Assembly (NCBI GenBank): GCA_043819795.1
Contig: JBDREN010000137.1
Span: 1 to 18,093, forward strand
DNA: 18,093 nucleotides
From: Elusimicrobiota bacterium
GTDB taxonomy: Bacteria > Elusimicrobiota > Elusimicrobia > UBA1565
Direction: 5' to 3'
Part shown: positions 1-17,724 of the stretch, piece after piece
How the letters are laid out: each line of letters begins with the position of its first letter
Position numbering within the stretch: the stretch's first letter is position 1
Position numbers and translations under genes: made by a program
Notes under the pieces: generated by a model
The model's database searches: none
Told to the model about the DNA's origin: nothing
What the model saw: the letters and a program-made list of their open reading frames with translations, nothing else

Positions 1-3000
1 ATGATGAAGAAGTTGTAGTGGCCGCATTGGAAATCAGCGGGGATAGTGAAGTCCAGCGTGGTGGAGGACTGGCCGTTCTGGTAATAGGTCTGCTCGGCGG
101 TCCCGTAGACCGAGGTGGAGAGGTCCACTAGACGGTTGCCGGGCGCCATCGCCTCAAAGTTGCCCGCATCGTTGGGCATGAGATAGACCCGCGGGTAGTT
201 GGTGGGGGAATTCGCGTACCCGTGCCCTCCTCCCGAGGCTTCTCCCCCGCCCGCAAACGTTGTCCCGACAACGGTGTAGGTGTCGCCCGGATGCAAGGTG
301 ACCGGGAAGGAACCCTGCCCGTCGATCGTTTCAATCTTGGGCTGCAAAAAGGCGACCGTGGAAAGGTGGAAGTCGTACTCCGTATACAGGGCCAACTCGG
401 CGGAGGACAGGAACACATCCGCGGCATCTTGACCCCCCGCCAGCAGAACCTTGCCGTTCGGCAAGAGCGTCGCGGTGAGCAGACGCCGCGGCGTGGTCAT
501 GTTGTCGATAACCGTCCAGGCCCCGGACGCCGGATCGTAGACCTCCGCCGTGTCGATGGCGCCGCCGGCGAGGTTCGCTTGCCCCCCCACAACCAGCACC
601 TTGCCGTTCGGAAGGAGGGCCCCGGAATGACCCTGGTGGCCGGCCGACATGGAGCCGGTCGCTGCCCATGAGTTCAAGTCGGGATCGTAGAGCTCGGCCG
701 AGCTCAGCAGGCTCCCGCCGTTATAACCTCCGAAGACAAGCACCTTTCCGTTCTCCAGCTTCGCCCCGAGCGGGCTCAGGCGAGAGTACGACATGGAGCC
801 CGCGCTCGTCCAAGAGCCGGAAGCCGGATCGTAAAGCTCCGCTGAAGCGATGGGCCCGCCGCCGTCGGCTCCCCCGGCCACCAGCACCTTCCCATTGTCC
901 AGCAGGACCGCCGCGAAGCTCATGCGCTGCCCGCTCATGCTGCCCGTCGGCAGCCAAGCCTCGACCGACGGATCGTATATCTCTGCAGACGACAACACCG
1001 ACGCCCCGTCGCGACCTCCCGCGACCAAGACTTTCCCGTTCGGGAGGACGACGGCGCCGGGAGCTTCGCGCTCGAAGGTCATCGAGCCTGTCGGCGACCA
1101 AAGCCCGGACTGAGGATCGTAGAGCTCCGCCGTTGACAGCCGCGTCGCGCCGTCCGTTCCACCGGCCACAAGCACCTTCCCGTTCGGCAACAGGACCGAT
1201 ATGTGGTAGTTGCGCGGAGTCGACATGGGATCGGCGCTCTCCCAGGATGCCGTGGCGGAATCGTAGATCTCAACGGTGGATAGGACGCTGCCCGAGTCGC
1301 CGCCGGTGACGAGCACCTTCCCGTTCGGCATCAATGTGGCCGCATGGTAGCCGCGCGCCCCGGACATCGAGTCCGTCGCCTCCCAGTCGCCGGCGGAGGG
1401 GTCGTAGAGCTCAACGCTGGAATGGTTCCCCCCCGCGCCGTTGGCCCCGGCCACCACGAGGACCTTACCGTTCGGCAGGAGCGTGGCGGAGTGCGCCGCG
1501 CGGATCGCGGACATGGCGTCGGTCGTCGTCCACTGGCCGTTAGTCCCTGAGGAAGGTTCGAAGATCTCCGCGGTGGAGAGATAGCTCCCTTGATCTCCCC
1601 CCGCCACCAGGACCCTGCCGTCCGGAAGAAGCGTGGCGACGTGCAAACGGCGCGCCTGAGCCAAGGAGTCCGTCGTGGTCCATGTCCCCTCGGAGGGATC
1701 GAAGAGCTCCGCGGTCGAGAGATAACTGCCATTGAACCCACCCGCCACCAAGACCTTCCCGTTCGGCAGGAGCGTAGCAGTGTGATAGTACCGCTGCTCC
1801 GACATGGATCCCGTGGCCGTCCAATTGCCGGACGTAGGGTCATAGAGCCCGGCGTGGTCGGTCACTCCCGGATCGGAATCTCCCCCGGCCACCAGGACCT
1901 TGCCGTCGGGCAAGAGTGTGGCGGTGTGGAAACCGAGCACATCAGGCATGGGGTTGGTCGTGGACCAACTGCCCGCGGAGGGGTCGTACAACTCCGCCGT
2001 GGAGAGTTCGCCCCCCCCGTCGAGTCCGAATCCCCCCGCAATCAGGACCTTTCCGTTGTGCAACAACGTAGCAGTGTGACCGTAGCGCCCATCCGACATG
2101 GAGTCCGTAGTGGCCCATTCTCCGTTCGTCCCCACGGAGGGGTCGAAGAGTTCCGCCGTTGAGAGGGGCGTCCCGCTGCCGTATCCACCCGCGACAAGGA
2201 CCTTCCCGTTGGGCAGGAGCGTGGCGGTATGCACATTGCGCGCCACCGCCAAGGAATCCGTCGCCGTCCAGGTGCCCTCAACGGGGTCATAGAGCTCAGC
2301 CGTGGAAAGATCGCTCCCCCCATTCCACCCTCCCGCCACCAGGACCTTGCCGTTCGGCAGAAGCGTGGCGGTGTGCTGCTGGCGCGGACTCGCCAAGCTG
2401 GAGGCGCCGCTGGTGGTCCAGGTCGGATCGATGAGCAGAGGATACCTGAGCCCGGAATCCTGGACAAGCATGGTGAGCAGATAGGCTCGATGCCCGTCTT
2501 CGCCCCGTTTCTCGGAAACGGCCGGCTGAAGCGCGAACCGGCCTTCGGCCCTTCTTCCCTCGGCGTCAATCACCACCGGCCGGGAAAGCTGGAAGACCAT
2601 AGCGTCCGCGGCGTCGCGGGCTTCCAGGCTGCCGCTCGCGTTCACCCGGAAGGACACGATCCTTCCCTTGGGGCGGAGCTCTTGCACGAAGGCCTTGGGA
2701 GCCTTCGCGGACTTCAGGTAGTAGAACTCCTCGACCTCGGCGGGGGATGCGGCGAAGAACACCGAGGTCTCGGGGTAGGCGTCGGGATAGAGGATGATCC
2801 CGTCCCGGACCGCCGCCTCGGCGGGCGAGACGCCCACAGGGCGGATCTCCACGGCGGTCTCCTCTTCGTCCTGTCCCCGTCCAGGAAGAGAGGGCAAAGG
2901 CAGTCTGACAGTATAGGGCTTGCCGTAGGTCTTGGGGAAAACCGGGGGAGCCGGGGTCTTGGCGCCGCTCCTGCCGGCCAGAGCCTCCAACGCCTTCCTC

Positions 3001-5132
3001 TCCTCCGGCTTGAGGCTCCCGGCAGCCTGAGCCGAGCCCAGATAGCCCGCGAAGGGCGAGACCCCTTGGCCGCTATCTTCGTAGCGCAAACCCTTGAGCC
3101 GGGCCCACTTCTCGCCGAGCCCGGGGAAGCGCTCCTTGAGCTCGGATACGAAGCCCGCGGCCCGGGACGGGCCCCTCGCCGCGTCCGCCGGGGACCCGCG
3201 TTCGGAGGCGCGCGCAGCCAGCAGCGAGTCTTGAAACAGCCCAAGATTGTGCCGCGCCCTGGCGTCTTGCGGATGGTCGCCGAGCAGGTCCTCGAGGTCT
3301 TGGACCGCTCTCTCCGGATCGCCGCCGTAGGCGTGGGCCACGGCCAGGTTGTTCCGAATCTCGGCGCTCGTTGGCTTACGCCCCTTAGCCAGCTCGAGAT
3401 AGGCCGCGGCCTTCCGGTGCTCGCCTTTCTGGAGATACGCCGACCCGATGCTGTAGTAGGTCTGTCCCCGGTCCACTTTCACCTGAAGGCTCTTGCGGTA
3501 TTCCCCGGCCCGGCGCAGCAGGTCAGGGCCGAAGGGCTCGACGGATTCCACGGCCCCGCGCTCATCGTCCCCGTAAAGCTCAATGGCCAGGGCGATCCTG
3601 TATTCCCCGATGGCCTCGTCCCATTGGCTCCTCTCGGCGTACGCCTTGGCCATCGCGTAACGCAGGCGGGCGGACTGGGGGCAGGTCTCGAGGTTCGCGC
3701 GGGCCAAAGAGAACGTGTCCTTCCAGTCTTTGTTGCGCTGGGTCGTGACGCCGAGATAGAGGCAGCAGAGGGCCGCGAGGCCCAGGGCCCGGACCGCGCC
3801 GTTTCGTCCCGCCCTTGTACTCAGCGTCCATGCCAGGAGCTCCGCGACGATCAGCCCCCAGCCGATGACCGAGAGGTAGAGGTAGCGCTCGTTGACGACC
3901 GTGTTGATGGAGACGATGTTCGAGACAGGAGCCAAGGCCAGCAGGAACAGCAGGATGCCGAAGCCCGTCCTGGGGTTGCGGCCCATCTGCCGGAAGCCGA
4001 GCCAGAGCAAGGCCGCGAGAAGCAGGCCGAAGAAAAGAGTCTCCGGGTCCAGGCTGTGCTTGACCGCGAAGAGGTACTCCAGGCTGAGCGGGTAGGGCAA
4101 AAGCGTCTGCTTCACGTAGATCGCCAAGCCCTTGAGCATGGTCAGCGCCTGAGGCGCCAAGCCGCCGGCCCAGTAGCCGGTCTGGGCGGTCTGGCCAAGC
4201 GCCGCCGAGCGCGCGAGCACGTAAGCTCCCGCGAGCAGGAAGTAGGGAATAAGGGGGCTCCAGCGTCCTTTACCCCCGTCCTGCGGGGCCCGCCCGCGCA
4301 GATAGAGATAGAACCCCAGCGCGACCGGCAGCGTCACCGCCATCTCCTTGCTCAGCAAAGAGAGCGCGAAGCACGCCAGCGAACCGCCGTAAGCCCAGCG
4401 CGAGGCCTTTTCCCGCGAGCGGACGAACAGGATGAACGCGAGGAGGTAGAAGAAAAGGTAGACCAGGTTGGACCGGGAGCCCACGAAGGCCACGGACTCC
4501 GTCTGCACGGGGTGGATGAGAAAGACGAGGGCCGCGATGAAGGCGGTCGCAGCGGGCGGGCCGCGCAGGCCGCGCCCTTCGGACGGGTCCTGGGGCGCGC
4601 GCGCCGCGCGGGGCCGGAAGAGCAGGAGGATCAGCCAGAACACGAGCAGGGCGTTCACGACATGGATGGCCGCGCTCGTCAGGTGAAAGGCTCTCGGGTC
4701 CAGCCCGGAGGCCTTGTAGTTTAGGGCGTAGACGAACACGCTCAGCGGACGCCAGGTGTGGCGGGTGGACTCCGCGTCGGCGTCGGCGTACTGCGCCTCC
4801 GGACGGAAGAACTTGGCGAGCGGAGTGAGGGTGCGGATGGCCTCGTTTTGGACGACGAGGATCTCGTCGTCGTAGACGAAGCCGTTGTCCAGGGTGTTGT
4901 GCCAAGCCAGGACGCCGAAAAGCACGAGGCAGGCGAGAGGCGCCAGCCCGCGAACGCCTCCCGGACCGGCGCGGTGCCCGGGGCTCTTGCCGGGTGCCAG
5001 CCTGCGAACGATTCCCGCACCGGCGCGGTGCCCGGGGCTCTTGCCGGGTCCCAGCCTCCGGACGATTCCCGCGCCGGCGCGGCGCCCGGAGCCGGCTACC
5101 AGCCGCCCGAGAAGCCTCCTCGCGCTCCTCAT
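1..5132 (-). CDS. Giant fusion protein (>1710 aa, 3' end outside the window): TMTC-like GT-C membrane glycosyltransferase + TPR repeats + YPLLIDP-ending domain + ~14 Kelch/galactose-oxidase-type repeats + further beta-rich domain
   Basis: ATG at 5132 after GAGGGGG. The nearest upstream in-frame stop is at 5202-5204, and the ORF track shows no stop-terminated ORF in this frame below that. Manual translation gives NGFVYDD, WRPLS, HPVQTESV, SKE, ERYLY and RNKDW (TMTC motifs), then TPR-like IRNNLAVAHA and ARHNLG, then VEEFYYL...YPLLIDPTW, then repeated HTATLLPNGKVLVAGG...AELYDP...W units at ~420-2420. Confidence 0.88.
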   Translation of the reverse strand, partial: MRSARRLLGRLVAGSGRRAGAGIVRRLGPGKSPGHRAGAGIVRRLAPGKSPGHRAGPGGVRGLAPLACLVLFGVLAWHNTLDNGFVYDDEILVVQNEAIRTLTPLAKFFRPEAQYADADAESTRHTWRPLSVFVYALNYKASGLDPRAFHLTSAAIHVVNALLVFWLILLLFRPRAARAPQDPSEGRGLRGPPAATAFIAALVFLIHPVQTESVAFVGSRSNLVYLFFYLLAFILFVRSREKASRWAYGGSLACFALSLLSKEMAVTLPVALGFYLYLRGRAPQDGGKGRWSPLIPYFLLAGAYVLARSAALGQTAQTGYWAGGLAPQALTMLKGLAIYVKQTLLPYPLSLEYLFAVKHSLDPETLFFGLLLAALLWLGFRQMGRNPRTGFGILLFLLALAPVSNIVSINTVVNERYLYLSVIGWGLIVAELLAWTLSTRAGRNGAVRALGLAALCCLYLGVTTQRNKDWKDTFSLARANLETCPQSARLRYAMAKAYAERSQWDEAIGEYRIALAIELYGDDERGAVESVEPFGPDLLRRAGEYRKSLQVKVDRGQTYYSIGSAYLQKGEHRKAAAYLELAKGRKPTSAEIRNNLAVAHAYGGDPERAVQDLEDLLGDHPQDARARHNLGLFQDSLLAARASERGSPADAARGPSRAAGFVSELKERFPGLGEKWARLKGLRYEDSGQGVSPFAGYLGSAQAAGSLKPEERKALEALAGRSGAKTPAPPVFPKTYGKPYTVRLPLPSLPGRGQDEEETAVEIRPVGVSPAEAAVRDGIILYPDAYPETSVFFAASPAEVEEFYYLKSAKAPKAFVQELRPKGRIVSFRVNASGSLEARDAADAMVFQLSRPVVIDAEGRRAEGRFALQPAVSEKRGEDGHRAYLLTMLVQDSGLRYPLLIDPTWTTSGASSLASPRQQHTATLLPNGKVLVAGGWNGGSDLSTAELYDPVEGTWTATDSLAVARNVHTATLLPNGKVLVAGGYGSGTPLSTAELFDPSVGTNGEWATTDSMSDGRYGHTATLLHNGKVLIAGGFGLDGGGELSTAELYDPSAGSWSTTNPMPDVLGFHTATLLPDGKVLVAGGDSDPGVTDHAGLYDPTSGNWTATGSMSEQRYYHTATLLPNGKVLVAGGFNGSYLSTAELFDPSEGTWTTTDSLAQARRLHVATLLPDGRVLVAGGDQGSYLSTAEIFEPSSGTNGQWTTTDAMSAIRAAHSATLLPNGKVLVVAGANGAGGNHSSVELYDPSAGDWEATDSMSGARGYHAATLMPNGKVLVTGGDSGSVLSTVEIYDSATASWESADPMSTPRNYHISVLLPNGKVLVAGGTDGATRLSTAELYDPQSGLWSPTGSMTFEREAPGAVVLPNGKVLVAGGRDGASVLSSAEIYDPSVEAWLPTGSMSGQRMSFAAVLLDNGKVLVAGGADGGGPIASAELYDPASGSWTSAGSMSYSRLSPLGAKLENGKVLVFGGYNGGSLLSSAELYDPDLNSWAATGSMSAGHQGHSGALLPNGKVLVVGGQANLAGGAIDTAEVYDPASGAWTVIDNMTTPRRLLTATLLPNGKVLLAGGQDAADVFLSSAELALYTEYDFHLSTVAFLQPKIETIDGQGSFPVTLHPGDTYTVVGTTFAGGGEASGGGHGYANSPTNYPRVYLMPNDAGNFEAMAPGNRLVDLSTSVYGTAEQTYYQNGQSSTTLDFTIPADFQCGHYNFFI
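420..2420 (-). repeat. ~14 Kelch-type coding repeats, period about 144-150 nt
   Basis: LLPNGKVLVxGG motif recurs near 2350, 2205, 2050, 1900, 1758, 1615, 1467, 1320, 1178, 1033, 890, 745, 600 and 450. Confidence 0.9.
4942..5089. repeat. 54-bp tandem repeat, ~2.7 copies, encoding an 18-aa unit (HRAGAGIVRRLAPGKSPG) in the N-terminal tail of the giant protein
   Basis: ccggcgcgg(t/c)gcccgg units begin at 4966, 5020 and 5074. Confidence 0.9.
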
Positions 5133-5459
5133 CGTCCCCCTCACCGGGACCTCGCCTCCTTGCTTCGGCTCGGCGCTCCTGCCGCAGCAGGAAGCCGACC
5201 TCTATGGCGAGAGACGCCGCCCGGGGGATCGGATGGCGTCTGTAGGAGCGCGAAAAGAGGGAACTTTCCGGGACCGCATTCGTACGTGTTGTTGGCGGGA
5301 GGAGCTCCCGGGAGGCCCATCCGCACGCGGATGATCCCTCCGCGGGGGGAACGGTCGGCGAGGACCGGTCCGATGGGTGCGGGCCGATGAACCGGGGATC
5401 CGACGCAGCTCAAGCTGCCCGCACAGACAGGATGGACGGACGAGTTCCGAAGAAAGCGG

Positions 5460-5951: not shown

Positions 5952-6962
5952 TCACTTGAGCACCCCGATCACCCCGGAGTCCGTCCGGCTCTTGCCGAAC
6001 CGCACGCTGAGCGAGAACCGGTGCGCGTTTCCCAGCTCGCCATAGGGCAGAAGGGTGTAGTCGAAGCTCCCGAACTTCGAGCGGAAGCCCGAGCCCAGGA
6101 ACATGCCGTAGAACTCGGAGAGCCCCGGCGCCTCGGAGCCCAGCGCCCTGCCCAAGGCCGCCTCGCGCTGCCCCCCCGACATCGTCCTGTAGCCCGCGCG
6201 CAGGGCGAAGGGGCCGAAGCCCAGGTACTCCACGCCCAGGCGCAGGACCGGCGCGTTGTCGCGAGGGAAGTCGAGCTCGAGGCTGAGCGCGTGCGGGAAG
6301 CGCTTCGTCATCCCCACGGTCGCTCCCATCCGGAAGGTGAGCGGGAGCGGGAAGCCCTGCCCGATGAAGCGGACTTTCGTGCCGAGGTTGACTAGCGAGG
6401 CGCCCACCGAGACCGGCCAGCGCTTGAACCGGCGCAACGCCCCGAAGTCCGCGGCGTAGGCCGTGGCTGAGTATTCGCCGATGGTCTGGCGGATGAACTT
6501 GCCGGTCGCGCCGAGCCCGACGAAGCCGAGCTTGCGGCCGTAGCTCACGCTCATGGCCAGGTCCGAGGCGCCGAAGGTGCCCTCGGGCTGGGCGCTCTCG
6601 TAGGTGCGGCGCTCGATGCCGCCCAGGCTCAGGTGGGTGGCGGCGAAGCCGAAGGGCCGGCGCAACAGGCCCATCTGCGAGAGGCGGATGTCCTGGATGT
6701 GCATGGCGTGCGAGGCGAGCAGCTCGTAGCCCCCGGGAGCGTGGAGCGCGGGAGGCACGGCCAGGCCGGCCGGGTTGTAGTGAACGGCCGACACGTCGTC
6801 GGCCATGGCCACGAAGGCCTCGCCGAGAGCCAGCGGGCGGGCGCCGAAGCCCAGCTTCAGGAAGGTGGCGGCCGAGGTGCCGGGGCCGGCGGAAAAAGCG
6901 GAGAGCGGCAGGCAGAGCAGGAATGCTGCTGCGAGAAGTCCTCGGCTTTTGCTCTCGGCCAC
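5952..6962 (-). CDS. PorV/PorQ-family (UPF0164-like) outer-membrane beta-barrel protein
   Basis: GTG start and signal-peptide-like N-terminus. Motifs GTSAATFLKLGFGARPLALGEAF..ADD..AVHYNPAGL and terminal FDY..PYGELGNAHRFSL; alternating beta-strand pattern. Confidence 0.85.
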   Translation of the reverse strand: MAESKSRGLLAAAFLLCLPLSAFSAGPGTSAATFLKLGFGARPLALGEAFVAMADDVSAVHYNPAGLAVPPALHAPGGYELLASHAMHIQDIRLSQMGLLRRPFGFAATHLSLGGIERRTYESAQPEGTFGASDLAMSVSYGRKLGFVGLGATGKFIRQTIGEYSATAYAADFGALRRFKRWPVSVGASLVNLGTKVRFIGQGFPLPLTFRMGATVGMTKRFPHALSLELDFPRDNAPVLRLGVEYLGFGPFALRAGYRTMSGGQREAALGRALGSEAPGLSEFYGMFLGSGFRSKFGSFDYTLLPYGELGNAHRFSLSVRFGKSRTDSGVIGVLK

Positions 6963-7526: not shown

Positions 7527-7636
7527 ACTCTATCGGGATTCCCGTGCGCCCGCAAGCTCAGCTTTTCTTAAGCAAAAAGTGCCGGGAAATGCGGCATAAA
7601 GCCGCCTGTCCGGGACGGGCTTAAGGGTGGATTCAG
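7527..7636 (-). promoter_or_regulatory. 110-bp promoter/operator module, copy E1 (TTGCGG-17-TAGAGT plus two CTTAAG-based 11-bp-period boxes)
   Basis: Colinear with 8166-8275 and 10114-10223; CTTAAG at 7567 and 7620. Confidence 0.75.
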
Positions 7637-8100
7637 CCGGGCGAGCGGTAGGCCGGTTGGGATTGGACGCTCTGGTGTTCGGCGCGGGAGCGGTCGAACA
7701 CCCCGCCCGCCCCGCGCCGGGTCTCTTCAAGCCGCCGGCTGATCTGATCGAGGGTTTCCGCGGTGGTGAAGCGCCTGACGTCCGCCATGCCCTTGATCCC
7801 CGCGATCACGACAAGCGGCTCGTTGACGCCGGCCTGCCTGGCGGTCTTGGATAGGATCGCGAGGATCGCCGCCGCGCCGCGCGGCAGCGAGCTTTCCATG
7901 AGGACCATGCCGGCCATCGCGCCGCGGGCGGTCTCGATGACGGCCTCTTCGACCTCGCGGTTCGAGAGTCCGCGCCCCTTCAGCCGTGCCAAGAGCGTAC
8001 CGTTGAGAACGCCCGCCGCCACCTGCGCGGGGTCCCCGAGAGCCCGGATCGACTTGACGACCATCTCCTTCGTCAACTGAGCGAGATTGAAAGCTTCCAT
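7633..8100 (-). CDS. Hypothetical helical protein (155 aa), paralogue of the N-terminal domain of the neighbouring histidine kinase
   Basis: RBS GGAGGGGGGA before ATG 8100. MEAFNLAQLTKEMVV...GAMAGMVL...LPRGAAAIL...GMADV.RFTT is shared with the kinase N-terminus. Confidence 0.85.
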   Translation of the reverse strand: MEAFNLAQLTKEMVVKSIRALGDPAQVAAGVLNGTLLARLKGRGLSNREVEEAVIETARGAMAGMVLMESSLPRGAAAILAILSKTARQAGVNEPLVVIAGIKGMADVRRFTTAETLDQISRRLEETRRGAGGVFDRSRAEHQSVQSQPAYRSPG

Positions 8101-8165
8101 TCCCCCCCTCCATGCACCGGCGTCCACCCCGGCGGGGGCGTTGGCGCCCGCGAGGTTCTTGCCAA

Positions 8166-8275
8166 AGTCTTGCGGGATCCCCGCGCGGGCGCAAGCTCAG
8201 CGTTTCTTAAGAAAAAAGTCCCGGGAAAGGCGGCGCAAAGACGGCGATCCGGCACGGGCTTAAGGTTGGATTCAG
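8166..8275 (-). promoter_or_regulatory. 110-bp promoter/operator module, copy E2
   Basis: TTGCGC-17-AAGACT; CTTAAG at 8206 and 8259; TTTCTTAAGAAA palindrome. Confidence 0.75.
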
Positions 8276-10032
8276 ACCGCGGGTCCTCGCGTCGCCCGGC
8301 TTGGCGCGGAGGTTCCTGAAGCTGAGACCAACTCACCCGCGCTCCTGGAGCCGGGGCGGACCGGGAGGCAGACGGCGAAGACGGCGCCCTTGCCCCTCCC
8401 TTCCGAATGGGCCTCCAGGCTCCCGCCGCACTTCTCCACGATGTCCCGGCAGATGGACAGGCCCAATCCCGTGCCGCTCTGCCCGCGGGTCGTGAAGAAC
8501 TTCTCGAACAACCGGGGCAGGTGTTCGGGATCGATGCCGATCCCCGTGTCCTCGACCCGCATCCGGACCCGTCCTCCTTCGGTGTGAGCGGACACCGTCA
8601 AAGTACCGCCCTCGGGCTCGGGCATGGCGTGCAGGGCGTTGACGAAGAGGTTGAGGAAGACCCGCCGCAACGGGTTCTTGGCCGCGAGCACCTTCGGCAA
8701 GTCCGGTTGAAGCTCGGCGCGGACCGCGACCTTGTTCATCCTGGCCTGCGTGTCGACGAGCTCCAGCGTCTCCCGGAGCACCTCCTCCAGCGAGACCTCC
8801 TCCAGCTTGAACTCGTCCCCCCGGGCCAGGTCCATGAGGTGGCGGAGAGTGGCCTCGCAGGACCGCGCGCTCTTTTCCATCCTGCGAATCGTCCCCCGGA
8901 GAGGAGAGTCCGGGGGCGCCGTCTGCCTCAGAAGCTCCGCGCCTGTCAGCAGGTTCATCACGGGGTGGCTCAGATCGTGCACGACCCCGGCCACCAGAAA
9001 GCCCAGGTCCGCCATCTTGGAGGCCTGGGCCACCTGGATGTCCAGCCGCCGCTTCTCGTCGGCGAGGTCCATCTCGTAGAGGAGAAACCCCACGTGCGGG
9101 GAAAGCCATTCCAGCGTCCGCGCGTCATCGCGGGTGAAGCCGCCCTCCTTGCTGAGCAGCTCCACGATGCCCACCGCGCGCCCCTTGTGATAGAAGGCGG
9201 AGACCAGGATGTTCTTGGTCTTGTAGCCGGTCTTCCGGTCGATGGACGGGTCGAAGCGCGGGTCTTTGTACGGGTCGTTGGCGCGGATGCTCTTCCCCTG
9301 CTGGATGACGAAGCCCGCCATCCCCTGGCCGACCTCGAGCTCCACATGCTCCTCGAGGCCCACGGCGAACTCGCTTCTCAGCTTTCCGTCCTTCAGGAGG
9401 AACAGGGAGGCGCGCTCGCAGCCGAACTGGGAGGTCAAAGACTCCGCCAGGATGGGCCAGAACTCCGTCAGGGCCCTCGACTCGATGGCCCGCCTGTTCA
9501 GGTGGGCCACAAGATAGAGCAGCTGCTCGAATCCCGCGTACTGCTCGTCGGCCGAGGCATCCGCACCCTCGGGATCGCCTTCGGCGTCGGGGCGTTGGCG
9601 CGCGCCGCCGTCGGCGCACAAGCGGTCGAAGGCGGCGCCCGCGCCGCGCCGGACCTCCTCCAGCCGCTGGCTGATCCGCCCGAGGACCTCCGGGGTCGTG
9701 AAGCGCTTGACGTCCGCCATGCCCTCGATCCCCGCGATCGCGACGAGCCGGTCGTCGACGCCCGCCTCCCTGGCGGTCTTGGGGACGGCCGCGAGGATCG
9801 CCGCCGCCCCGCGCGGCAGGGGGCATTCCGTGAGGACCATGCCGGCCATGGCGCCGCGGCAGGTTTCGACGGCGGCCTCTTGGACCTCGTGGTCCGGAAG
9901 ACTGCGGCCCTTCAGCCGGGCCAAGAGCGTGCTGTGGACCACGCGCGCCGTCACTTGCGCGGGGTCCCCGAGCTCCCGGATCGAACCGACGACCATCTCT
10001 TTTGTCAGCTGAGCGAGGTTGAACGCTTCCAT
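8272..10032 (-). CDS. Cytoplasmic sensor histidine kinase (586 aa): unknown N-terminal domain + GAF + HisKA + HATPase
   Basis: RBS GGAGGGGAGA before ATG 10032. GAF motif DPYKDPRFDPSIDRKTGYKTKNIL; H-box VVHDLSHP; N-box NLFVNALHAM; G1 EDTGIGI; F LFEKFFTT; G2 GTGLGL. No clear TM helix. Confidence 0.92.
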   Translation of the reverse strand: MEAFNLAQLTKEMVVGSIRELGDPAQVTARVVHSTLLARLKGRSLPDHEVQEAAVETCRGAMAGMVLTECPLPRGAAAILAAVPKTAREAGVDDRLVAIAGIEGMADVKRFTTPEVLGRISQRLEEVRRGAGAAFDRLCADGGARQRPDAEGDPEGADASADEQYAGFEQLLYLVAHLNRRAIESRALTEFWPILAESLTSQFGCERASLFLLKDGKLRSEFAVGLEEHVELEVGQGMAGFVIQQGKSIRANDPYKDPRFDPSIDRKTGYKTKNILVSAFYHKGRAVGIVELLSKEGGFTRDDARTLEWLSPHVGFLLYEMDLADEKRRLDIQVAQASKMADLGFLVAGVVHDLSHPVMNLLTGAELLRQTAPPDSPLRGTIRRMEKSARSCEATLRHLMDLARGDEFKLEEVSLEEVLRETLELVDTQARMNKVAVRAELQPDLPKVLAAKNPLRRVFLNLFVNALHAMPEPEGGTLTVSAHTEGGRVRMRVEDTGIGIDPEHLPRLFEKFFTTRGQSGTGLGLSICRDIVEKCGGSLEAHSEGRGKGAVFAVCLPVRPGSRSAGELVSASGTSAPSRATRGPAV

Positions 10033-10113
10033 TCTCCCCTCCGCGGCCCGGCGGCCCATCCCGGTCCCCCGGATCGAGACCGTACTCCGATCGCGTCCGA
10101 GAGTTTCCGTTAC

Positions 10114-10223
10114 AGGCTTGCAGAATCCCCGCGCGGGCGCAAGCTCAGAATTTCTTAAGAAAAAAGTCCTTTGAAAGGCGGCGCAAATCCGCCGGTCTGG
10201 ACCGGGCTTAAGGGGGGATTCAG
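10114..10223 (-). promoter_or_regulatory. 110-bp promoter/operator module, copy E3
   Basis: TTGCGC-17-AAGCCT; CTTAAG at 10154 and 10207. Confidence 0.75.
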
Positions 10224-10260
10224 GCGCACATCCGGCGAACACGTGCGCCGTTCATGAAAC

Positions 10261-10399: not shown

Positions 10400-11074
10400 C
10401 TACTCGAACTTATAGCCGACCTTGGAGACCGTCACGATGCGCTTCCTCGCGTCGCCCAGCTTGGCTCGAAGGTTCCTGATATGGACCTCGACCGTATTGT
10501 CGCGAAGCACCGTGTGCCACAGCTTGGAGAGTATGAACTGCTTGGAGAACACCTTGGGCCTGTTGCGCACCAGCTCATAGAGCAGGTCGAACTCCTTGCG
10601 CGTGAGGTCGCCGATGACCCGGCCGCCGGTCCGCACGGTGAAGGTCTGCGGGTCCATCACGAAGTCGTCGGAGCGCAGGACCCCGCTCTTCGACTCGTCC
10701 ATCCCGGCACGGCGCAGAAGGGCCGCCGCCCACATGGGCAGCTCGTCCATCTGGGTCAGCTTCAACAGGTATTGGTCCGCGCCCGCGCCGAAGCCCTTCT
10801 CCATGTCCCGCATCATCGCCATGGCCGTCAGCATGATGACGGGCGTGGAGGCCAGCTCGGGATCGGCCCGTATCTTCTGGCACAAGGAGAGGCCGCTCCC
10901 GTCCGGCAGGCATACGTCCAGGATGACCAGCGAGGGCCGGAACTCCCGGAGATAACGCCAGCCTTCGGCGCAAGTCGACACGTGGATGAAGGAGTAGCCC
11001 CCGGGAGAGAGGATCTCCTTGATCCGCGCCGCCTCATCCAGATCGTCTTCTATGATCAGGACCGTCACGCCCAT
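10400..11074 (-). CDS. OmpR/PhoB-family DNA-binding response regulator (224 aa; alternative starts 11110/11119)
   Basis: Receiver motifs IIEDD, ILDVCLPDGSG, VIMLTA, GADQYLLK. Winged helix LTRKEFDLL...SKQFIL...NTVEVHIRNLRAKLG...TVSKVGYKF. Confidence 0.93.
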   Translation of the reverse strand: MGVTVLIIEDDLDEAARIKEILSPGGYSFIHVSTCAEGWRYLREFRPSLVILDVCLPDGSGLSLCQKIRADPELASTPVIMLTAMAMMRDMEKGFGAGADQYLLKLTQMDELPMWAAALLRRAGMDESKSGVLRSDDFVMDPQTFTVRTGGRVIGDLTRKEFDLLYELVRNRPKVFSKQFILSKLWHTVLRDNTVEVHIRNLRAKLGDARKRIVTVSKVGYKFE

Positions 11075-11109
11075 GTCGCGACCCCTGGGACCGTCGGCTT
11101 CGATACTCA

Positions 11110-11138
11110 TATATACCATAACCGCTTCAACTCGTAAA
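11110..11138 (-). promoter_or_regulatory. Putative promoter of the response regulator (TTTACG-17-TATATA with TGn extension)
   Basis: Hexamers with 17-nt spacing in an AT-rich divergent intergenic region. Confidence 0.4.
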
Positions 11139-11343
11139 TATGATTCCGCCGTAGAAAACCGGCCTGCGAAGAGGATTCTTGCGGAATTCGCGCAAGTAAA
11201 CGGGCAATTCCGGCGAATTCCTCAAGGATTCGATATGCGGAAACGTTTTTGCGGACGGCCCCAATATGGCCAATAAGGTAAAATGCCGAAAGCCCTTGCC
11301 CAAAGATTACCGAGATCAGCCAGAGCACCTCAAGGCGCCCGGA

Positions 11344-13098
11344 ATGAAAGCCGGCCGCGCGGGACTTTTGCTCCCGGCCCTCATCATCCTTTGCTGCCTG
11401 GCCGCGTACTTCAACAGCGTCGGCAACGGGTTCGTCTACGACGATAAGCATATCATCGTCGAGAACCCGCTCATCCGGAAGCTCTCCTTCGCGCCCTACC
11501 TGTTCGGGACCACCTACTGGGGCATGGACGTCAACGCCCCGAAAGCCCGGGAAGGCGGCCTCTACAGGCCGCTGACCATGCTGAGCTATTCGGTGAACTA
11601 CCGGCTCGGGGGACTCGAGCCCGTCGGCTATCACCTGGCGAACCTGGTCCTGCACGTCTTCGTCTCGGTCATGCTCTTCTTCCTGCTGCGGAGGCTCGGG
11701 CTTTCGGACGGGGCCTCCGGCCTCGCCGCGCTGGCGTTCTCCGCGCTTCCCGTGCATACCGAGGCGGTGAGCTCGGTGGTGGGAAGAGCGGAGCTCTTGG
11801 CCGCGGCGTTCCTGCTTTGCTCGTGGCGGCTCGCGCACCTGCGCGCGGGCGCGTTCCGGATGGGCCTGTCGGTCGTCTTCTTCCTGCTCGCTTTGCTGTC
11901 CAAAGAGAACGCCGCCGTTTTCCCGCTGGTCCTGGCTCTCGCCGAATACGCCTCCCATCCCGGCTCCTGGAAAGAGGTCCTGAAGGCGCGGGCCGGCGTC
12001 TGGGCGCTGTTTCTCGTCGCGCTGCTTTTGTATCTCGAATGGAGGTACCACATCACGGGCGCGGTCTTCGCGACCGGCGGCGAGCCGTACTTTTCGTCCC
12101 AGACCACGCCCGTCGTGTTTCTGACGATGTCGAAGTTTTTCGCCCGGAAGTATCTCTGGCCCATGGCCACGGGGCTCGGCCTGAGCGCGGAATACCCGCC
12201 CGGCGCCTTCCCCGACGCGGGCCCGGGCGACGCGGGCGCGTGGGCCTGCCTTCTCTCGATCGCGGCCGTGGCCGGCGCCGCCCTCTGGACGCTCGCGCGC
12301 GCGAAGAGCGCGAAGGCGCTTTCCATCATGGTATTCTTCGCCTTCCTGCTGCCCGTGCTGAACGTCTTTTTCAGGATCGACGTGATCGGGGCCGAACGGT
12401 TCCTATATCTCCCCTCCATCGGGTTCTGCATGCTGCTGGGCTGCCGGTGGGAAGACCTCGCCGCCGCCAGGAGCCGGGCCGCGGTCCTCTACGCGTTTCT
12501 CGCGGCGTTCTGCCTGGTCTGGTGGACCTTCAAGACCGTGGAGAGGAACCGCGACTGGCGCTCGGACCAGAGCTTCTGGGCGGCCGTCGAGAAGTCCACG
12601 GGGCGAAGCCCGCGCACGCTCAACAGCCTGGGCACGGTCTACGACCGGACGGGAAACCGCGTTGTCGCGCGGCGCTACTACACCAAAGCGCTCGCCCTGG
12701 ACCCGGACCTGGCCAACGCCATGTACAACATGGGCAAGTCCTTTTTCGACGAAGGAGACCAAAAGAACGCGAAGAGCTGGTTCTTGAAGGCGCTCGACGC
12801 CGGAGCGGGTCCGGACAAGGACACGCTCTGCTTCCTGGGGCTGATCGCCCAAGAGCGGCGGGACTACGCGACGGCCGTCCGCCGCTTCAGGCAGGCGCTG
12901 GAGGTCAACCCGTACTATCCGACGGCGCGCAGGAACCTGGGCCTGCTGCTCTTCAGCCTCGGCAACGTCGAGGAGGGCGCCGGGCATCTGCGGCAGTACC
13001 TGAGGTTCGCGCCCGACGAGGACGAGTCGGCGGACGTGCGGAAGCTTCTGGACCGGTTCGAAGGCCGGGCGGCGCCATCCGGCGCGGGAGGGGGTTGA
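11344..13098 (+). CDS. TMTC-like GT-C membrane protein O-glycosyl(mannosyl)transferase with C-terminal TPRs (alternative start 11266)
   Basis: NGFVYDD, LYRPLT, YHLANLVLH, PVHTEAVSSVVGRAE, SKE, AERFLYLP, RNRDW; many TM segments, then TPR units (AMYNMG, ARRNLG). Confidence 0.88.
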   Translation: MKAGRAGLLLPALIILCCLAAYFNSVGNGFVYDDKHIIVENPLIRKLSFAPYLFGTTYWGMDVNAPKAREGGLYRPLTMLSYSVNYRLGGLEPVGYHLANLVLHVFVSVMLFFLLRRLGLSDGASGLAALAFSALPVHTEAVSSVVGRAELLAAAFLLCSWRLAHLRAGAFRMGLSVVFFLLALLSKENAAVFPLVLALAEYASHPGSWKEVLKARAGVWALFLVALLLYLEWRYHITGAVFATGGEPYFSSQTTPVVFLTMSKFFARKYLWPMATGLGLSAEYPPGAFPDAGPGDAGAWACLLSIAAVAGAALWTLARAKSAKALSIMVFFAFLLPVLNVFFRIDVIGAERFLYLPSIGFCMLLGCRWEDLAAARSRAAVLYAFLAAFCLVWWTFKTVERNRDWRSDQSFWAAVEKSTGRSPRTLNSLGTVYDRTGNRVVARRYYTKALALDPDLANAMYNMGKSFFDEGDQKNAKSWFLKALDAGAGPDKDTLCFLGLIAQERRDYATAVRRFRQALEVNPYYPTARRNLGLLLFSLGNVEEGAGHLRQYLRFAPDEDESADVRKLLDRFEGRAAPSGAGGG

Positions 13099-14187: not shown

Positions 14188-14868
14188 ATGGCAGCGCAGG
14201 TAGATGAGCACGGGCGACCTGTAACCCTGGCGTTCAACGCATCGCGGAGGGCGGAGCGGACAATCGACGAGCTCCTCGGGCTCTGCAAGGGGATCCTCGC
14301 TGATGGCGTCGTCAACGAGAAGGAAGCGGAGGCGCTGCGGTCCTGGATGACGGCCAACCCGGAGACTGCGACCATCTGGCCGGCGAACGTGCTGGCTGAC
14401 CGGCTGGAGCGGATTTTCGCGGACGGGCGCGTGGATGACGACGAGCTGACCGAACTCAGGGATCTTCTCACCTCGATCACCGGGCAGGAGCGCGATGAGC
14501 CCGTCGCCGAACACAAGGCGACCCGCCTGCCGGTCGACGATCCGGCGCCGCCCGTGGAGTTCCCCGGCCGGCTGTTCTGCCTCACGGGGCAGTTCGTCTA
14601 CGGATCCCGCAAGGCCTGCGAGGATGCGATCGTCAAACGGGACGGCCAATGCCAGGGCAATCCGACCAGCGAGACGAATTACCTGGTCATCGGCACGCTC
14701 TGCAGCCACGACTGGGCTCGCAGCGTGTATGGCCGCAAGATCGAGAAGGTGGTACGCGGCCGGCAGAACGAAGAATACACCGCCGCCATCGTCAGCGAGG
14801 AGCATTGGACGCGGCACCTCTCGCGAGCCCCAGAACCCGCCGATCCCCCGCCGCCCGCGAACCCTTGA
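14188..14868 (+). CDS. BRCT-domain protein with N-terminal TerB-like helical domain (226 aa)
   Basis: RBS AGGAGG. N-terminal GILADGVVNEKE and FADGRVDDDE; BRCT FCLTGQF...NYLVIG...GRKIEK...IVSEEHW. No ligase catalytic domain. Confidence 0.85.
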   Translation: MAAQVDEHGRPVTLAFNASRRAERTIDELLGLCKGILADGVVNEKEAEALRSWMTANPETATIWPANVLADRLERIFADGRVDDDELTELRDLLTSITGQERDEPVAEHKATRLPVDDPAPPVEFPGRLFCLTGQFVYGSRKACEDAIVKRDGQCQGNPTSETNYLVIGTLCSHDWARSVYGRKIEKVVRGRQNEEYTAAIVSEEHWTRHLSRAPEPADPPPPANP

Positions 14869-14890
14869 TCCATCGAGCCTGCGAATAGGC

Positions 14891-15111
14891 CCGCTCGAAT
14901 CGTCCCGCTGGATGCGGGAGCGGTGACCTCCATGGGCCCGCCGCAATCCGGGCCGGGGCAGACGCCGAAACCTAGTGTAGCGCGTCATATGTCCCTTTAC
15001 TTATTCTCTCGACGGAGGGTGCATTGATCCGTCGCATCAAACGTCAAGAAGCGTTGGACGCACTACACTGATATGAAGTTATCCACAAACTTGCCCCGGG
15101 GCAAGTTGACG
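14891..15111 (+). repeat. Module B1: copy of the integrase 3' end + DnaA-box-like nonamer + 20-bp palindrome, interrupted by a MITE
   Basis: 14891-14976 matches 17139-17224 (first 39 bp identical, about 76/86 overall); 15075-15111 matches 17229-17265 (36/37). Confidence 0.9.
14974..15069. mobile_element. ~95-bp MITE-like insertion with terminal inverted repeats
   Basis: AGTGTAGCGCGTC (14974-14986) / GACGCACTACACT (15057-15069), 12/13 complementary. The segment is absent from paralogous module B2. Confidence 0.65.
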
Positions 15112-15210
15112 CTCCCTCCGCCGCGTTAGCACTGCCGATATACGGAACCATTTAGCCGCTCAGTCGTATATCTCGGGTGAGGCCCCAGGCCCATGCCATG
15201 AGGAGAGGCC

Positions 15211-16323
15211 ATGCAAATACCCGTTGACTGCGATACGCTCAGCGACCGCGACTTGATCTTCCGGTTGAAGCAAGCGACCACCCAGGAACGGCGATCCCTG
15301 ATCATGCTCTTGTGTTATCTCGCGGAAGCCGACCGCCGCCAGCTCCACGCCAAGGAGAGTTCCCCCTCCCTGTTCGCCTACTGTGTCGCGGAACTACACT
15401 ATTGCGAAGGCGCCGCATACCGGCGCATCCACGCGGCACGAGCGGCCAGCAAGTTCCCCGCCATTTATTCGCTCCTGGCGGATGGGGCTCTCTCCCTGGG
15501 AACGATCTCGATGCTGGCGCCGCATCTCACGAAGGAGAATTCTGGAAACTTGCTCGCCCGCGCACAGGGCAAGAGCAAGCGGGAGCTGCAATTCCTGCTC
15601 GCATCGCTCTCGCCCGGGACGGAACGGCCCGACTTTGCCCGGTGCCTGCCCGCGCAGCCAGCGCAAACCACCTCCCCATCGCCTAGCACCCCCCTGCGAA
15701 TGCTTCCAGCGCCCGAATCGGCCCCGGATCCGATTGCCGGGCCGGAAGGGAGCACGTCCCTGGTGTCGTTCCGGGCGTCCCCTGTTCCACAAAGCCATCG
15801 TCAGTCCGTCCAACCCTACGCTCGTCATCGGGCGCGGATCGCGTTCGATTGCGATGAAGGCCTTCTCCGGAAGCTTGAAAGGGCCCGCGAAGTCCTGCGC
15901 CACAAGTTTCCCGCCGGGAGGTATGAGGAAATCTTCACTGAGGCCCTGGAGGCCTTACTCGACAAGAAGGACCCCGAACACAGACTTCAGCGCAACAAGG
16001 GACACGGGCGCCGAGCGAACCGCGAACAGCGCGGGCGCGTCGATGGATCGAGGACGCTGCCTCGCACGCGGAGAATCCCGCAAGCGGTCAGAGACGAAGT
16101 CTGGCGCCGCGACGGGGGGCGGTGCGCCTTCACTGGTCCCGACGGCAGTCGTTGCCCGGAGCGCGGCGGTCTTGAGTTCGACCACATGATCCCCTGGGCC
16201 CTCGGCGGAAGGTCGGATACGCCGCGGAACATCCGCCTGCTCTGCCGGACTCACAACCGACTGCTCGCCAGACAGGCCTTCGGCGATGCCGCAATGCGCC
16301 CTGCACGACACGCCAAGCGGTGA
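15211..16323 (+). CDS. HNH endonuclease with long N-terminal helical domain (DUF222-like architecture), 370 aa
   Basis: RBS GAGGAG. C-terminal VRDEVWRRDGGRCAF...RC...LEFDHMIPWALGG...NIRLLCRTHN; N-terminal SLFAYC..LHY.EGAAYRRI.AAR. Confidence 0.9.
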   Translation: MQIPVDCDTLSDRDLIFRLKQATTQERRSLIMLLCYLAEADRRQLHAKESSPSLFAYCVAELHYCEGAAYRRIHAARAASKFPAIYSLLADGALSLGTISMLAPHLTKENSGNLLARAQGKSKRELQFLLASLSPGTERPDFARCLPAQPAQTTSPSPSTPLRMLPAPESAPDPIAGPEGSTSLVSFRASPVPQSHRQSVQPYARHRARIAFDCDEGLLRKLERAREVLRHKFPAGRYEEIFTEALEALLDKKDPEHRLQRNKGHGRRANREQRGRVDGSRTLPRTRRIPQAVRDEVWRRDGGRCAFTGPDGSRCPERGGLEFDHMIPWALGGRSDTPRNIRLLCRTHNRLLARQAFGDAAMRPARHAKR

Positions 16324-16363
16324 ATTGAATAACCCCGTGTTCTTGGTATAATTATTCATAGAA
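16305..16363 (+). promoter_or_regulatory. Module A2: promoter TTGAAT-16-TATAAT, overlapping the HNH 3' end
   Basis: Repeat of 14107-14165. Confidence 0.8.
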
Positions 16364-16396
16364 AGAAACCGCCTCCGTGCCCGCGGGACAGGCGGT

Positions 16397-17209
16397 ATGC
16401 CCCGCAAGGCAAGGGCGAGTTCGACAGCCGTAAACACGCCATGGCCCTCGGTCTGGATTGAGCCGCGGAAGAGGAAGAAGGGGACGAGTTGGCTCGTCTG
16501 TTGGCAGACGGCCGGGCCGGCGACTCGGCGGAAGAGGGCCTACCGCATCAAGCCGATCGCTGAGCGAGCGGCCGCCAAGAAGCGGCTCGAGCTCGAGGCC
16601 GGGAAGGCCGGCGTCGAGATCCCCCCGGAGCGGCTCGAGTGGCGCGCGTACGCGGAGGAGTACCTCGCCCACTGCAAGGCGCACAAGGCCGCGAACACCA
16701 TCGAGCATTTCGACGCGCCCGCCATCCGGTCCTTCACCGAGATGGTGAACCCGGACTCGCTGGGCTCGATCACGCCCGGAGCGATCGAGCGATGGAAGCT
16801 CGAGCTCCTCAAGAAATACTCGCCGTCGACCGTATCCATGCGGCTGCGCTGCGTCAAGGCCGCCCTCGCCCATGCGGTCCGCCTCGGCTACATGGCGAAG
16901 AACCCGGCCGCGGCGGTCCGGAAGCCGCGGGAGGTCCGGGCCGGGAAGGCCCTGACGAACGAGCAGATCGTGAAGTTGCTGCGCGCGGCCTCCGCGCGGA
17001 TCCGGCCGGCCATCGTATTCGCGCTGCACACCGGCTTCCGCCGCGGCGAGGTCCTCGCCCTGGACTGGATCTGGATCCGGAAGCCCCGGAAGGGATCCTG
17101 GGAGGCCACGCTGCCGGCCGAGCACACGAAGACCGGCGCCGCTCGAATCGTCCCGCTGGATGCGGGAGCGGTGACCTGCGTGGGCCGGCCGCAATCCGAA
17201 CTGAGGTAG
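16397..17209 (+). pseudogene. C-terminally truncated tyrosine recombinase/phage integrase
   Basis: Arm/core-binding region, then HTGFRRGE (catalytic Arg) and HTKTGAARIVPL (Lys). The stop comes before HxxR and the Tyr nucleophile. Confidence 0.8.
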
Positions 17210-17265
17210 GCGCCGAAACCGAGTCCCCGAAGTTATCCACAGACTTGCCCCGGGGCAAGTTGACG
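17139..17265 (+). repeat. Module B2 (TTATCCACA 17233-17241; palindrome ACTTGCCCCGGGGCAAGT 17243-17260)
   Basis: Direct repeat of B1. Confidence 0.9.
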
Positions 17266-17373
17266 TGGCCCTGTTGACGCGGCCCCGACATCTCCGGCCG
17301 GAGACGGGCGGATCGCCCTGCCGGGCGGCCGGGTTGCGCCGGGCTGCAGGCCTGCGGAGCCGCCGGCCCGTGA

Positions 17374-17541
17374 GTGAACCCCCTCCCCGGGCTAAAGCCC
17401 GGGGCTTCGGGGCCTCGGCATGCTTCGGCCCGCCGGCACGTTGCCACCGGCGCACCCTCGCATGCCAAACAACGCCTCCGCTACGCTCCGGGCGGCCATT
17501 CATCCCCAGGCTTGAAAGCCTGGGGTTTTCTGGCCGTCTTT
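17374..17541 (-). mobile_element. Non-autonomous IS200/IS605-family palindromic element (PATE), ~168 bp
   Basis: On the - strand: target TTAT, then left end AAAA + hairpin CCCCAGGCTTTCAAGCCTGGGG. Right end GAAG + hairpin CCCCGGGCTTTAGCCCGGGG...TTCAC. No tnpA or tnpB. Confidence 0.75.
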
Positions 17542-17546
17542 ATAAA

Positions 17547-17575
17547 TTGTTGAAACCGTTGTTTATTCGTATAAT
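17547..17575 (+). promoter_or_regulatory. tRNA promoter TTGTTG-17-TATAAT
   Basis: Perfect -10 at 17570-17575, about 60 nt upstream of the tRNA. Confidence 0.65.
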
Positions 17576-17633
17576 TCAGCCTTAGGGGGAGTCGCGTCCC
17601 GGCGAGCCGGGGCGGCATCCGCCCCAAGTTTGC

Positions 17634-17724
<91 letters not shown>

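Follow-up and report, generated by a model that had tools for sequence, protein, structure and literature searches.

The window (the whole stretch of DNA that was analysed, 18,093 nt) is an entire contig (C137) of a 5.0 Mb, 67% GC, 90%-complete genome. Its minus strand carries a reading frame that starts with an ATG at position 5132, 4–10 nt downstream of a Shine-Dalgarno-like GAGGGGG recognised from the sequence (5136..5142), and reaches the contig end after 1710 codons and zero stops. This frame is listed by an ORF search in which open ends are allowed, and since the window is the whole contig, the gene is truncated by the assembly and its product has at least 1710 aa. From the N-terminus onwards (all coordinates on the minus strand), the protein features a basic, repeat-built tail predicted to be cytoplasmic and not seen in relatives (aa 1–57, 4962..5132; 54-nt repeats at 4939–5100), a TMTC-like GT-C membrane domain with 11 putative transmembrane helices (aa 59–472, 3717..4958), a TPR region predicted to be periplasmic (aa 474–634, 3231..3713), an unconserved Ala/Arg/Pro linker of low model confidence and without signal-like segment (aa 635–660, 3153..3230), a DUF7948-like beta-sandwich ending in an invariant YPxLIDPxW (aa 661–905, 2418..3152) and 14 Kelch repeats predicted to form two seven-bladed propellers, the first of which was modelled (aa 914–1590, 363..2417). 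The gene leaves the contig within a domain conserved after Kelch repeat 14 (3..362), which we take to be Ig-like, of the E-set/IPT type. Upstream of the fusion gene and on the same strand, a PorV/PorQ-family outer-membrane barrel gene (5952..6962; NF033709, 135.6 bits for a cut-off of 90) is a possible carrier partner.

This architecture bears out the sequence-only reading, which had seen a single frame leading from a GT-C/TPR enzyme through a linker to a VEEFYYL...YPLLIDP domain and on to Kelch repeats, running off the contig; its estimate of about 14 Kelch repeats coincides with our count, and the DD motif that it considered intact lies at 4866..4871 (D88-D89). The Ala/Arg/Pro linker that it described is present here, but as a private insert of the window copy, the linker of several relatives being about 6 residues long.

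Third-position GC ranges from 0.81 to 0.92 across every part of the fusion gene. Read support across the junction, which had been put forward as a check, comes from a separately assembled 199-nt contig of a public run (one sample, possibly the source sample itself) that equals window positions 3073–3271 with 0 differences and thus spans the TPR end and the linker. No continuation of the gene was recovered from the other contigs, either as an exact overlap of the first 21–55 nt or as a blastn match; several contigs of the genome resemble the tails of fused relatives, none being assignable to the window gene. That the joint is due to misassembly, or that two neighbour genes recently happened to lose the stop codon separating them, is suggested by the nature of the contig, a metagenome-assembly fragment with read support only from short contigs of one sample, but this explanation is refuted by homologues: in view of 32 distinct fused junctions, 30 linkers without relic signal peptide and a separate contig crossing the junction with 0 differences, we give it practically no credit.

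These homologues were identified in several ways. In a junction search, 12 of 71 other matches hold the GT, TPR, DUF7948-like and Kelch parts on one chain, so that the proposed search for further proteins with both TMTC and Kelch domains turned out positive. When long proteins were searched with the GT domain only, the same passenger was found on 14/25 matches of 940–2993 aa and on 2/2 of 2994–5000 aa, the remaining long matches being long TPR proteins, one double GT and frog TMTC1. The junction domain occurs in 17 of 80 related genomes: 11 are fused, two have a signal peptide instead, one retains only the last transmembrane helix and the TPRs, and three are partial or unclear. Sampling 401 genomes of the phylum revealed at least 14 fused cases in at least two classes, a lower bound, as scoring was confined to two candidates per genome and checking to 29 new loci. 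Twelve of 40 named genome loci are fused (seven from Elusimicrobia/Elusimicrobiota and five labelled only “bacterium”), as are 0/20 loci from other named groups and 1/74 metagenome loci. Altogether, 74 fused records correspond to 32 distinct junctions at less than 90% identity, the window copy included. The fusion is therefore confirmed as genuine and conserved, and the possibility raised beforehand, that relatives always encode two genes and that the window shows a one-off, does not hold. The distribution of the fused loci points to Elusimicrobiota as the host, a phylum in which huge proteins are reported to abound (PMC11573180). Giant proteins of Omnitrophota have also been described as embedding glycosyltransferase domains, in their case of the GT1/GT5 kind, and are proposed to be cut (10.1101/2023.11.21.568195). 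Our literature search, for which subscription journals were mostly outside coverage, as were supplements (e.g., tables of giant proteins), returned no description of a fusion between a TMTC and a Kelch or other surface protein; the fusion is apparently undescribed so far.

Comparison with unfused relatives shows that the signal peptide and the enzyme module are mutually exclusive: a hydrophobic signal-like stretch is found in 0/30 fused linkers vs. 20/20 N-termini of unfused proteins from the same clade, which indicates that the enzyme module takes the place of the signal peptide. In a FastTree phylogeny of 110 passengers (restricted to rows with at least seven Kelch hits), a clade of 45 rows (support 99) contains all 24 fused passengers, interspersed with 20 unfused rows, and the well-supported branches imply at least eight switches between the fused and unfused states, so the passenger is able to do without its own enzyme. 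A quick GT tree with 65 domains groups 27 of the 29 fused copies in one clade (SH-aLRT 95), together with three unfused rows (a sequence truncated at a contig end, a double GT and a protein that stops after the TPRs), and places the two others elsewhere; the GT of the L023/P0085 lineage looks different from the other fused copies, which might reflect a second, independent fusion. A single clade for all fused GTs was not rejected by an AU test (p = 0.096, with nine rows dropped and the group chosen post hoc). The simplest reading of these unrooted trees is that a single old fusion was probably followed by repeated loss of the enzyme. Distances between GT domains correlate with those between DUF7948-like domains (Mantel rho 0.28, p 0.003), which, like the grouping of most fused GTs, speaks for enzyme and passenger having been inherited together; they show no correlation with Kelch distances (rho 0.03).

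Regarding the enzyme module, a profile built from 22 bacterial GT domains matched frog TMTC1 along 377 columns (E 6.6e-30, probability 99.8), i.e., over the whole membrane domain. With the seven TMTC motifs (M1–M7) set out in PMC7801869 as a reference, the DD of M1, in the first outer loop, and the ERxxY of M7 (E415-R416-x-x-Y419) are retained in 26/26 fused copies. In M2 (SHKSYRP), the aromatic-R-P part is likewise retained in 26/26 (R128-P129 in the window), with SHKS replaced, while M4 (KE(T/Q)xxT) appears as KEMAVT, in which K, E and the last T are kept and the third position is Met (K262 in 25/26 and E263 in 26/26). At the DW position of M5, the window has E352-Y353, an acid and an aromatic being found in 26/26 copies each and a literal DW in two. 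Two motifs deviate: the R-x-D/E of M3 reads R220-S-N222 here, with Asn in 21/26 copies and Asp in two, and the PxxP of M6 lacks its first Pro, the second (P402) being invariant in 26/26. The only Pfam match of the GT-C domain, to PMT_2, is below the cut-off, and DUF1736 (PF08409) matches neither the window protein nor the 22 aligned bacterial GT domains. Judged by its sequence, the module is TMTC-like, yet outside strict TMTC/GT105 membership.

The AlphaFold model (mean pLDDT 83.7, pTM 0.55) displays a helical bundle that fits 11 transmembrane helices and runs straight into the TPRs, vs. seven helices in a crude hydropathy scan. The relative placement of the domains is not fixed at this pTM. 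Fold searches with the long model returned only propellers among their matches, dominated by Kelch, and a sequence search for a solved GT-C structure returned 0 matches. Since LpxB is found in the genome, the cell has two membranes; by homology, the active site, the TPRs and the passenger would be periplasmic.

Because the putative catalytic residues (DD, RP, KE, ERxxY) are near-invariant in 26 copies, the enzyme of the fused proteins looks active. Alternatively, the GT-C/TPR module could be non-catalytic and serve as an export signal, an anchor or a holding chaperone, as might be suggested by its exact replacement of the signal peptide, by the Asn at the acidic position of M3 and by one locus (L028) in which only the last membrane helix and the TPRs are retained ahead of the passenger. 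Nonetheless, all the other residues with a putative role in catalysis or phosphate binding are (near-)invariant at a mean identity of 42% for the fused GT domains, in which only 8% of the columns reach 95% conservation, and the GT domain is more conserved than the TPR (36%) and DUF7948-like (35%) parts, which makes a purely structural role improbable.

The passenger begins with the YPLLIDP domain, the model of which (pLDDT 91.9) is a confident one with a beta-supersandwich fold resembling galactose-mutarotase/lyase-type domains (Z about 10, rmsd 3.5–3.7 over 174 residues, identity below 13%). Foldseek gave no match at E 0.001. At the sequence level, it appears to be distantly related to DUF7948 (PF25778), which is matched by 25/66 family members at E up to 0.1 (best 9e-6) and not by the window copy. 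Its relatives number 6179 at E 0.001, the best 150 of which are mostly the first domain of Kelch proteins bearing a signal peptide; its nearest named Atlas clusters (0.84 and 0.81) are leads only. The propellers match seven-bladed ones of the galactose-oxidase type (Z 35), and the succession of a seven-bladed Kelch propeller and an Ig-like domain recalls copper radical oxidases (galactose oxidase, GlxA; AA5), whose residue set comprises a Cys-Tyr cofactor and copper ligands. The fused passenger differs from them in having two propellers, and its core alignment has conserved His only at repeat positions and lacks any conserved Cys: Cys is absent from both window propellers and conserved nowhere across 44 aligned cores, and NF052501 scores 158.7 bits vs. 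a cut-off of 800. Without Cys for the cofactor in the propellers, copper oxidase activity was rejected. Beyond the Ig-like domain, tails are variable, complete fused members ranging from about 1,670 to 7,824 aa. The shortest (about 1,670–1,730 aa) end soon past the Ig-like domain with a Trp-rich tail, while longer ones append FN3, beta-helix, G8, FG-GAP or Big domains.

Considering these observations together, we lean slightly towards a dedicated enzyme, i.e., a TMTC-like GT-C/TPR module that would modify its own passenger during export and that likely doubles as the passenger's export signal and inner-membrane anchor. By comparison with TMTCs and TfpW, the 11 putative membrane helices would place the active site, the TPRs and all downstream parts in the periplasm. 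As the enzyme would be synthesised first, the parts of the passenger would leave the Sec channel unfolded next to it, extended beta-strands would be held by the TPRs, and Ser/Thr would receive single sugars, not necessarily mannose. To judge by homology, a Dpm1/ArnC-like GT2 enzyme might make the donor, a polyprenyl-phosphate sugar: several genes of the genome resemble such lipid-phosphate-sugar synthases, all below family cut-offs. Several observations run against a dedicated enzyme, including the Asn at M3, the cost of a one-to-one enzyme when standalone TMTC-like genes are available (1–22 matches per genome in 74/81 genomes of this order), a GtrA flippase not found in the 90%-complete genome, the uncorrelated GT and Kelch distances and the repeated changes between fused and unfused states.

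If the enzyme glycosylates its passenger, an acceptor signature might be expected in the latter. The Ser/Thr-rich Kelch repeats pointed out in the sequence-only reading are a family trait rather than an attribute of the fusion: Ser+Thr amounts to 0.237 in 25 fused vs. 0.219 in 19 unfused in-clade proteins (p = 0.14), and the window copy, at 0.196, lies below the unfused mean. The mean of 47 out-of-clade proteins is also 0.219, and the corresponding difference (p = 0.03) involves kin that are non-independent. Among 989 columns, no fused-specific Ser/Thr column survives correction, whereas N-sequons are slightly under expectation in all groups and not significantly enriched in fused passengers. 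C-mannosylation via WxxW was rejected, as this motif is found a single time, within the short Trp-rich tail, whether the protein is fused or not. The conserved fusion, the motifs and, by homology, the position of the cargo on the side of the active site partly support the sequence-only reading, but the enzyme-substrate relation itself finds no positive support in the sequences. TMTCs are reported to modify the strands of Ig-like domains, and modification driven by proximity has been proposed (PMC11292533); since the known clients of TMTCs and TMEM260 are Ig-like strands, the Kelch repeats are no likelier to be acceptors than the Ig-like, FN3 and beta-helix parts. The broader proposal that Kelch proteins are clients of bacterial TMTCs in general found no support, a single fused clade having to be set against the many standalone matches per genome.

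The missing signature and the repeated losses of the enzyme would both fit a glycosyltransferase active in trans, on other exported proteins or, like ArnT, on an envelope glycan or lipid, in which case the fusion would anchor the passenger and place the enzyme where surface structures are assembled. The genome encodes many other giant secreted proteins as potential clients, and ArnT is given as the closest solved homologue of TMTC domains (PMC7801869). Action in trans on unfused passengers is also possible given the standalone TMTC-like genes, although no TMTC gene adjoins an unfused passenger at the loci examined, which also speaks against a dedicated enzyme. Yet, this passenger is the sole non-TPR one found on long TMTC-like proteins in the GT search, the TPR-bearing relatives with known substrates (TMTC, TMEM260, TfpW) act on proteins, and a passenger of thousands of residues would bring a trans-acting enzyme little gain. 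On balance, we regard a function in trans as rather unlikely, albeit the most serious competitor of the dedicated enzyme.

The dedicated enzyme can be compared to several known systems. Animal TMTC1–4, which are protein O-mannosyltransferases (CAZy GT105), share with the fused proteins the whole membrane domain, the DD, RP, KE, acid-aromatic and ERxxY residues and the C-terminal TPRs; the fused proteins differ in being bacterial, in carrying a passenger of 1,100 to more than 7,000 aa and in the M3, M6, M2 and DUF1736 features detailed above (mostly Asn, first Pro absent, SHKS replaced and no match, respectively). TfpW, the pilin D-arabinofuranosyl transferase of Pseudomonas aeruginosa group IV strains, combines a DDX motif with periplasmic TPRs and a prediction of 11 helices, and is dedicated to a surface protein encoded by the neighbouring gene, the pilin just upstream, which it glycosylates (10.1101/2020.04.19.049825). 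Unlike the fusion, TfpW is a separate gene downstream of its substrate and makes arabinan chains. In human TMEM260 (GT117), a GT-C core is associated with TPRs reported to bind unfolded acceptor beta-strands (10.64898/2026.03.17.711096), a mechanistic model that we adopted here. TMEM260 acts in trans and has an extra Rossmann-like domain with the catalytic base, whereas our model passes from the last membrane helix directly into the TPR helices. Prokaryotic TMTC homologues are called uncharacterised in PMC7801869, according to which TMTC catalysis itself lacked direct demonstration at that time. A natural fusion of enzyme and passenger offers a candidate substrate within one construct, and sister pairs with and without the enzyme are natural controls; self-glycosylation, if true, would provide the first named substrate of a bacterial TMTC homologue.

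Five fused members (L023, P0077, the G003 gene, P0149 and P0225) end in a tail resembling the type A C-terminal domain of type IX cargo, which is absent from the other complete members. The tails of L023, P0077 and the G003 gene exceed the TIGR04183 cut-off, while those of P0149 and P0225 match an in-house profile built from type IX-like tails (E about 1e-14). Known type IX cargo starts with a cleavable signal peptide, in place of which the fused proteins have their multi-pass GT-C module, with linkers devoid of hydrophobic stretches. This raises the question of the route by which cargo attached to a multi-pass protein of the inner membrane would reach a carrier in the outer membrane, and the tail of these five members implies that they either leave the membrane or extend across the periplasm. 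One could envision a polyprotein that is cut soon after export, e.g., at the Asp-Pro of YPxLIDP, into a free enzyme and a secreted adhesin, without any enzyme-substrate relation. In its favour, Asp-Pro self-cleavage occurs in other secreted proteins, this Asp-Pro is invariant in 66/66 sequences, and the type IX-like tail is difficult to square with a permanent inner-membrane anchor. However, unfused homologues have the same invariant Asp-Pro, which is located between two strands within a well-folded domain, the linker has no conserved cleavage motif and most complete members are devoid of the tail, so that we hold this polyprotein to be very improbable. Cleavage by itself fits a dedicated enzyme as well, the polyprotein differing in that it denies the enzyme-substrate relation.

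Under the dedicated-enzyme reading, members without type IX-like tail would remain membrane-anchored, and the tailed ones would be cut free or would bridge the periplasm to a PorV/SprA-like carrier of the outer membrane. Our more detailed and more tentative proposal, which we rate at somewhat less than an even chance, is a self-glycosylating giant surface protein, in which a lipid-sugar glycosyltransferase would head its own substrate and sugar-coat thousands of residues at the Sec exit, some members passing the chain via the type IX-like tail to the outer-membrane carrier, either cleaved or spanning both membranes. As regards the machinery of such a transfer, Pfam searches of the genome for SprA_N and the PorU peptidase returned no match, the controls being equally silent. 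A 1889-aa ORF comprises three collinear SprA-like segments (below the cut-off) and about 20 genes of the PorV/PorQ family score above the cut-off. Beyond the window, loci L020, L021, L023 and L046 also have a PorV-like gene close to the fused one.

In one relative of the fused gene (L028:3-1760, minus strand), the passenger is preceded only by the last membrane helix and the TPRs, the catalytic domain being absent. At another locus (L021:4834-17527, plus strand), the fused gene is interrupted 3' of the fifth Kelch repeat by a frame change, which may be either an assembly error or a genuine split. The protein P0073 has a tandem GT-TPR-GT architecture, of which the second GT domain groups within the fused clade. 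Moreover, the shortest family members, fused and unfused alike, end in a conserved Trp-rich tail of about 60 aa (noted in P0005, P0010, P0074-P0076, P0085, P0147 and P0177).

The source genome encodes at least six TMTC-like GT-C/TPR domains, including a standalone protein of 610 aa, the second of this type on the window (11266-13098, plus strand), which is far from the fused clade and whose M3 motif (R-x-D/E) reads GRAEL. It also has about 20 PorV/PorQ genes, several of them directly 3' of giants bearing a type IX secretion-like tail, and a 1889-aa ORF (G000:C134:13528-16377) with three collinear SprA-like segments, the match being below the cut-off. At L185 and L186, two related giants, one fused and the other unfused, share a downstream gene set, which we take to comprise an unknown exported protein, a FecR-like protein and a barrel-like protein, with presumably MotA/MotB-like genes on the opposite strand.

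Upstream of the fused gene, a 164-aa ORF (7633-8127, minus strand) is similar to the N-terminal part of the adjoining GAF histidine kinase (8272-10242, minus strand), apparently through a local duplication; a response-regulator-like gene follows (10400-11119). Finally, the region 14188-17723 looks like the edge of an integrated element, with an ORF that we assume to be BRCT-like (14188-14868; no match in a Pfam search), an HNH gene (15211-16323), an integrase-like gene (16397-17209) and a tRNA-Ser (17634-17723).
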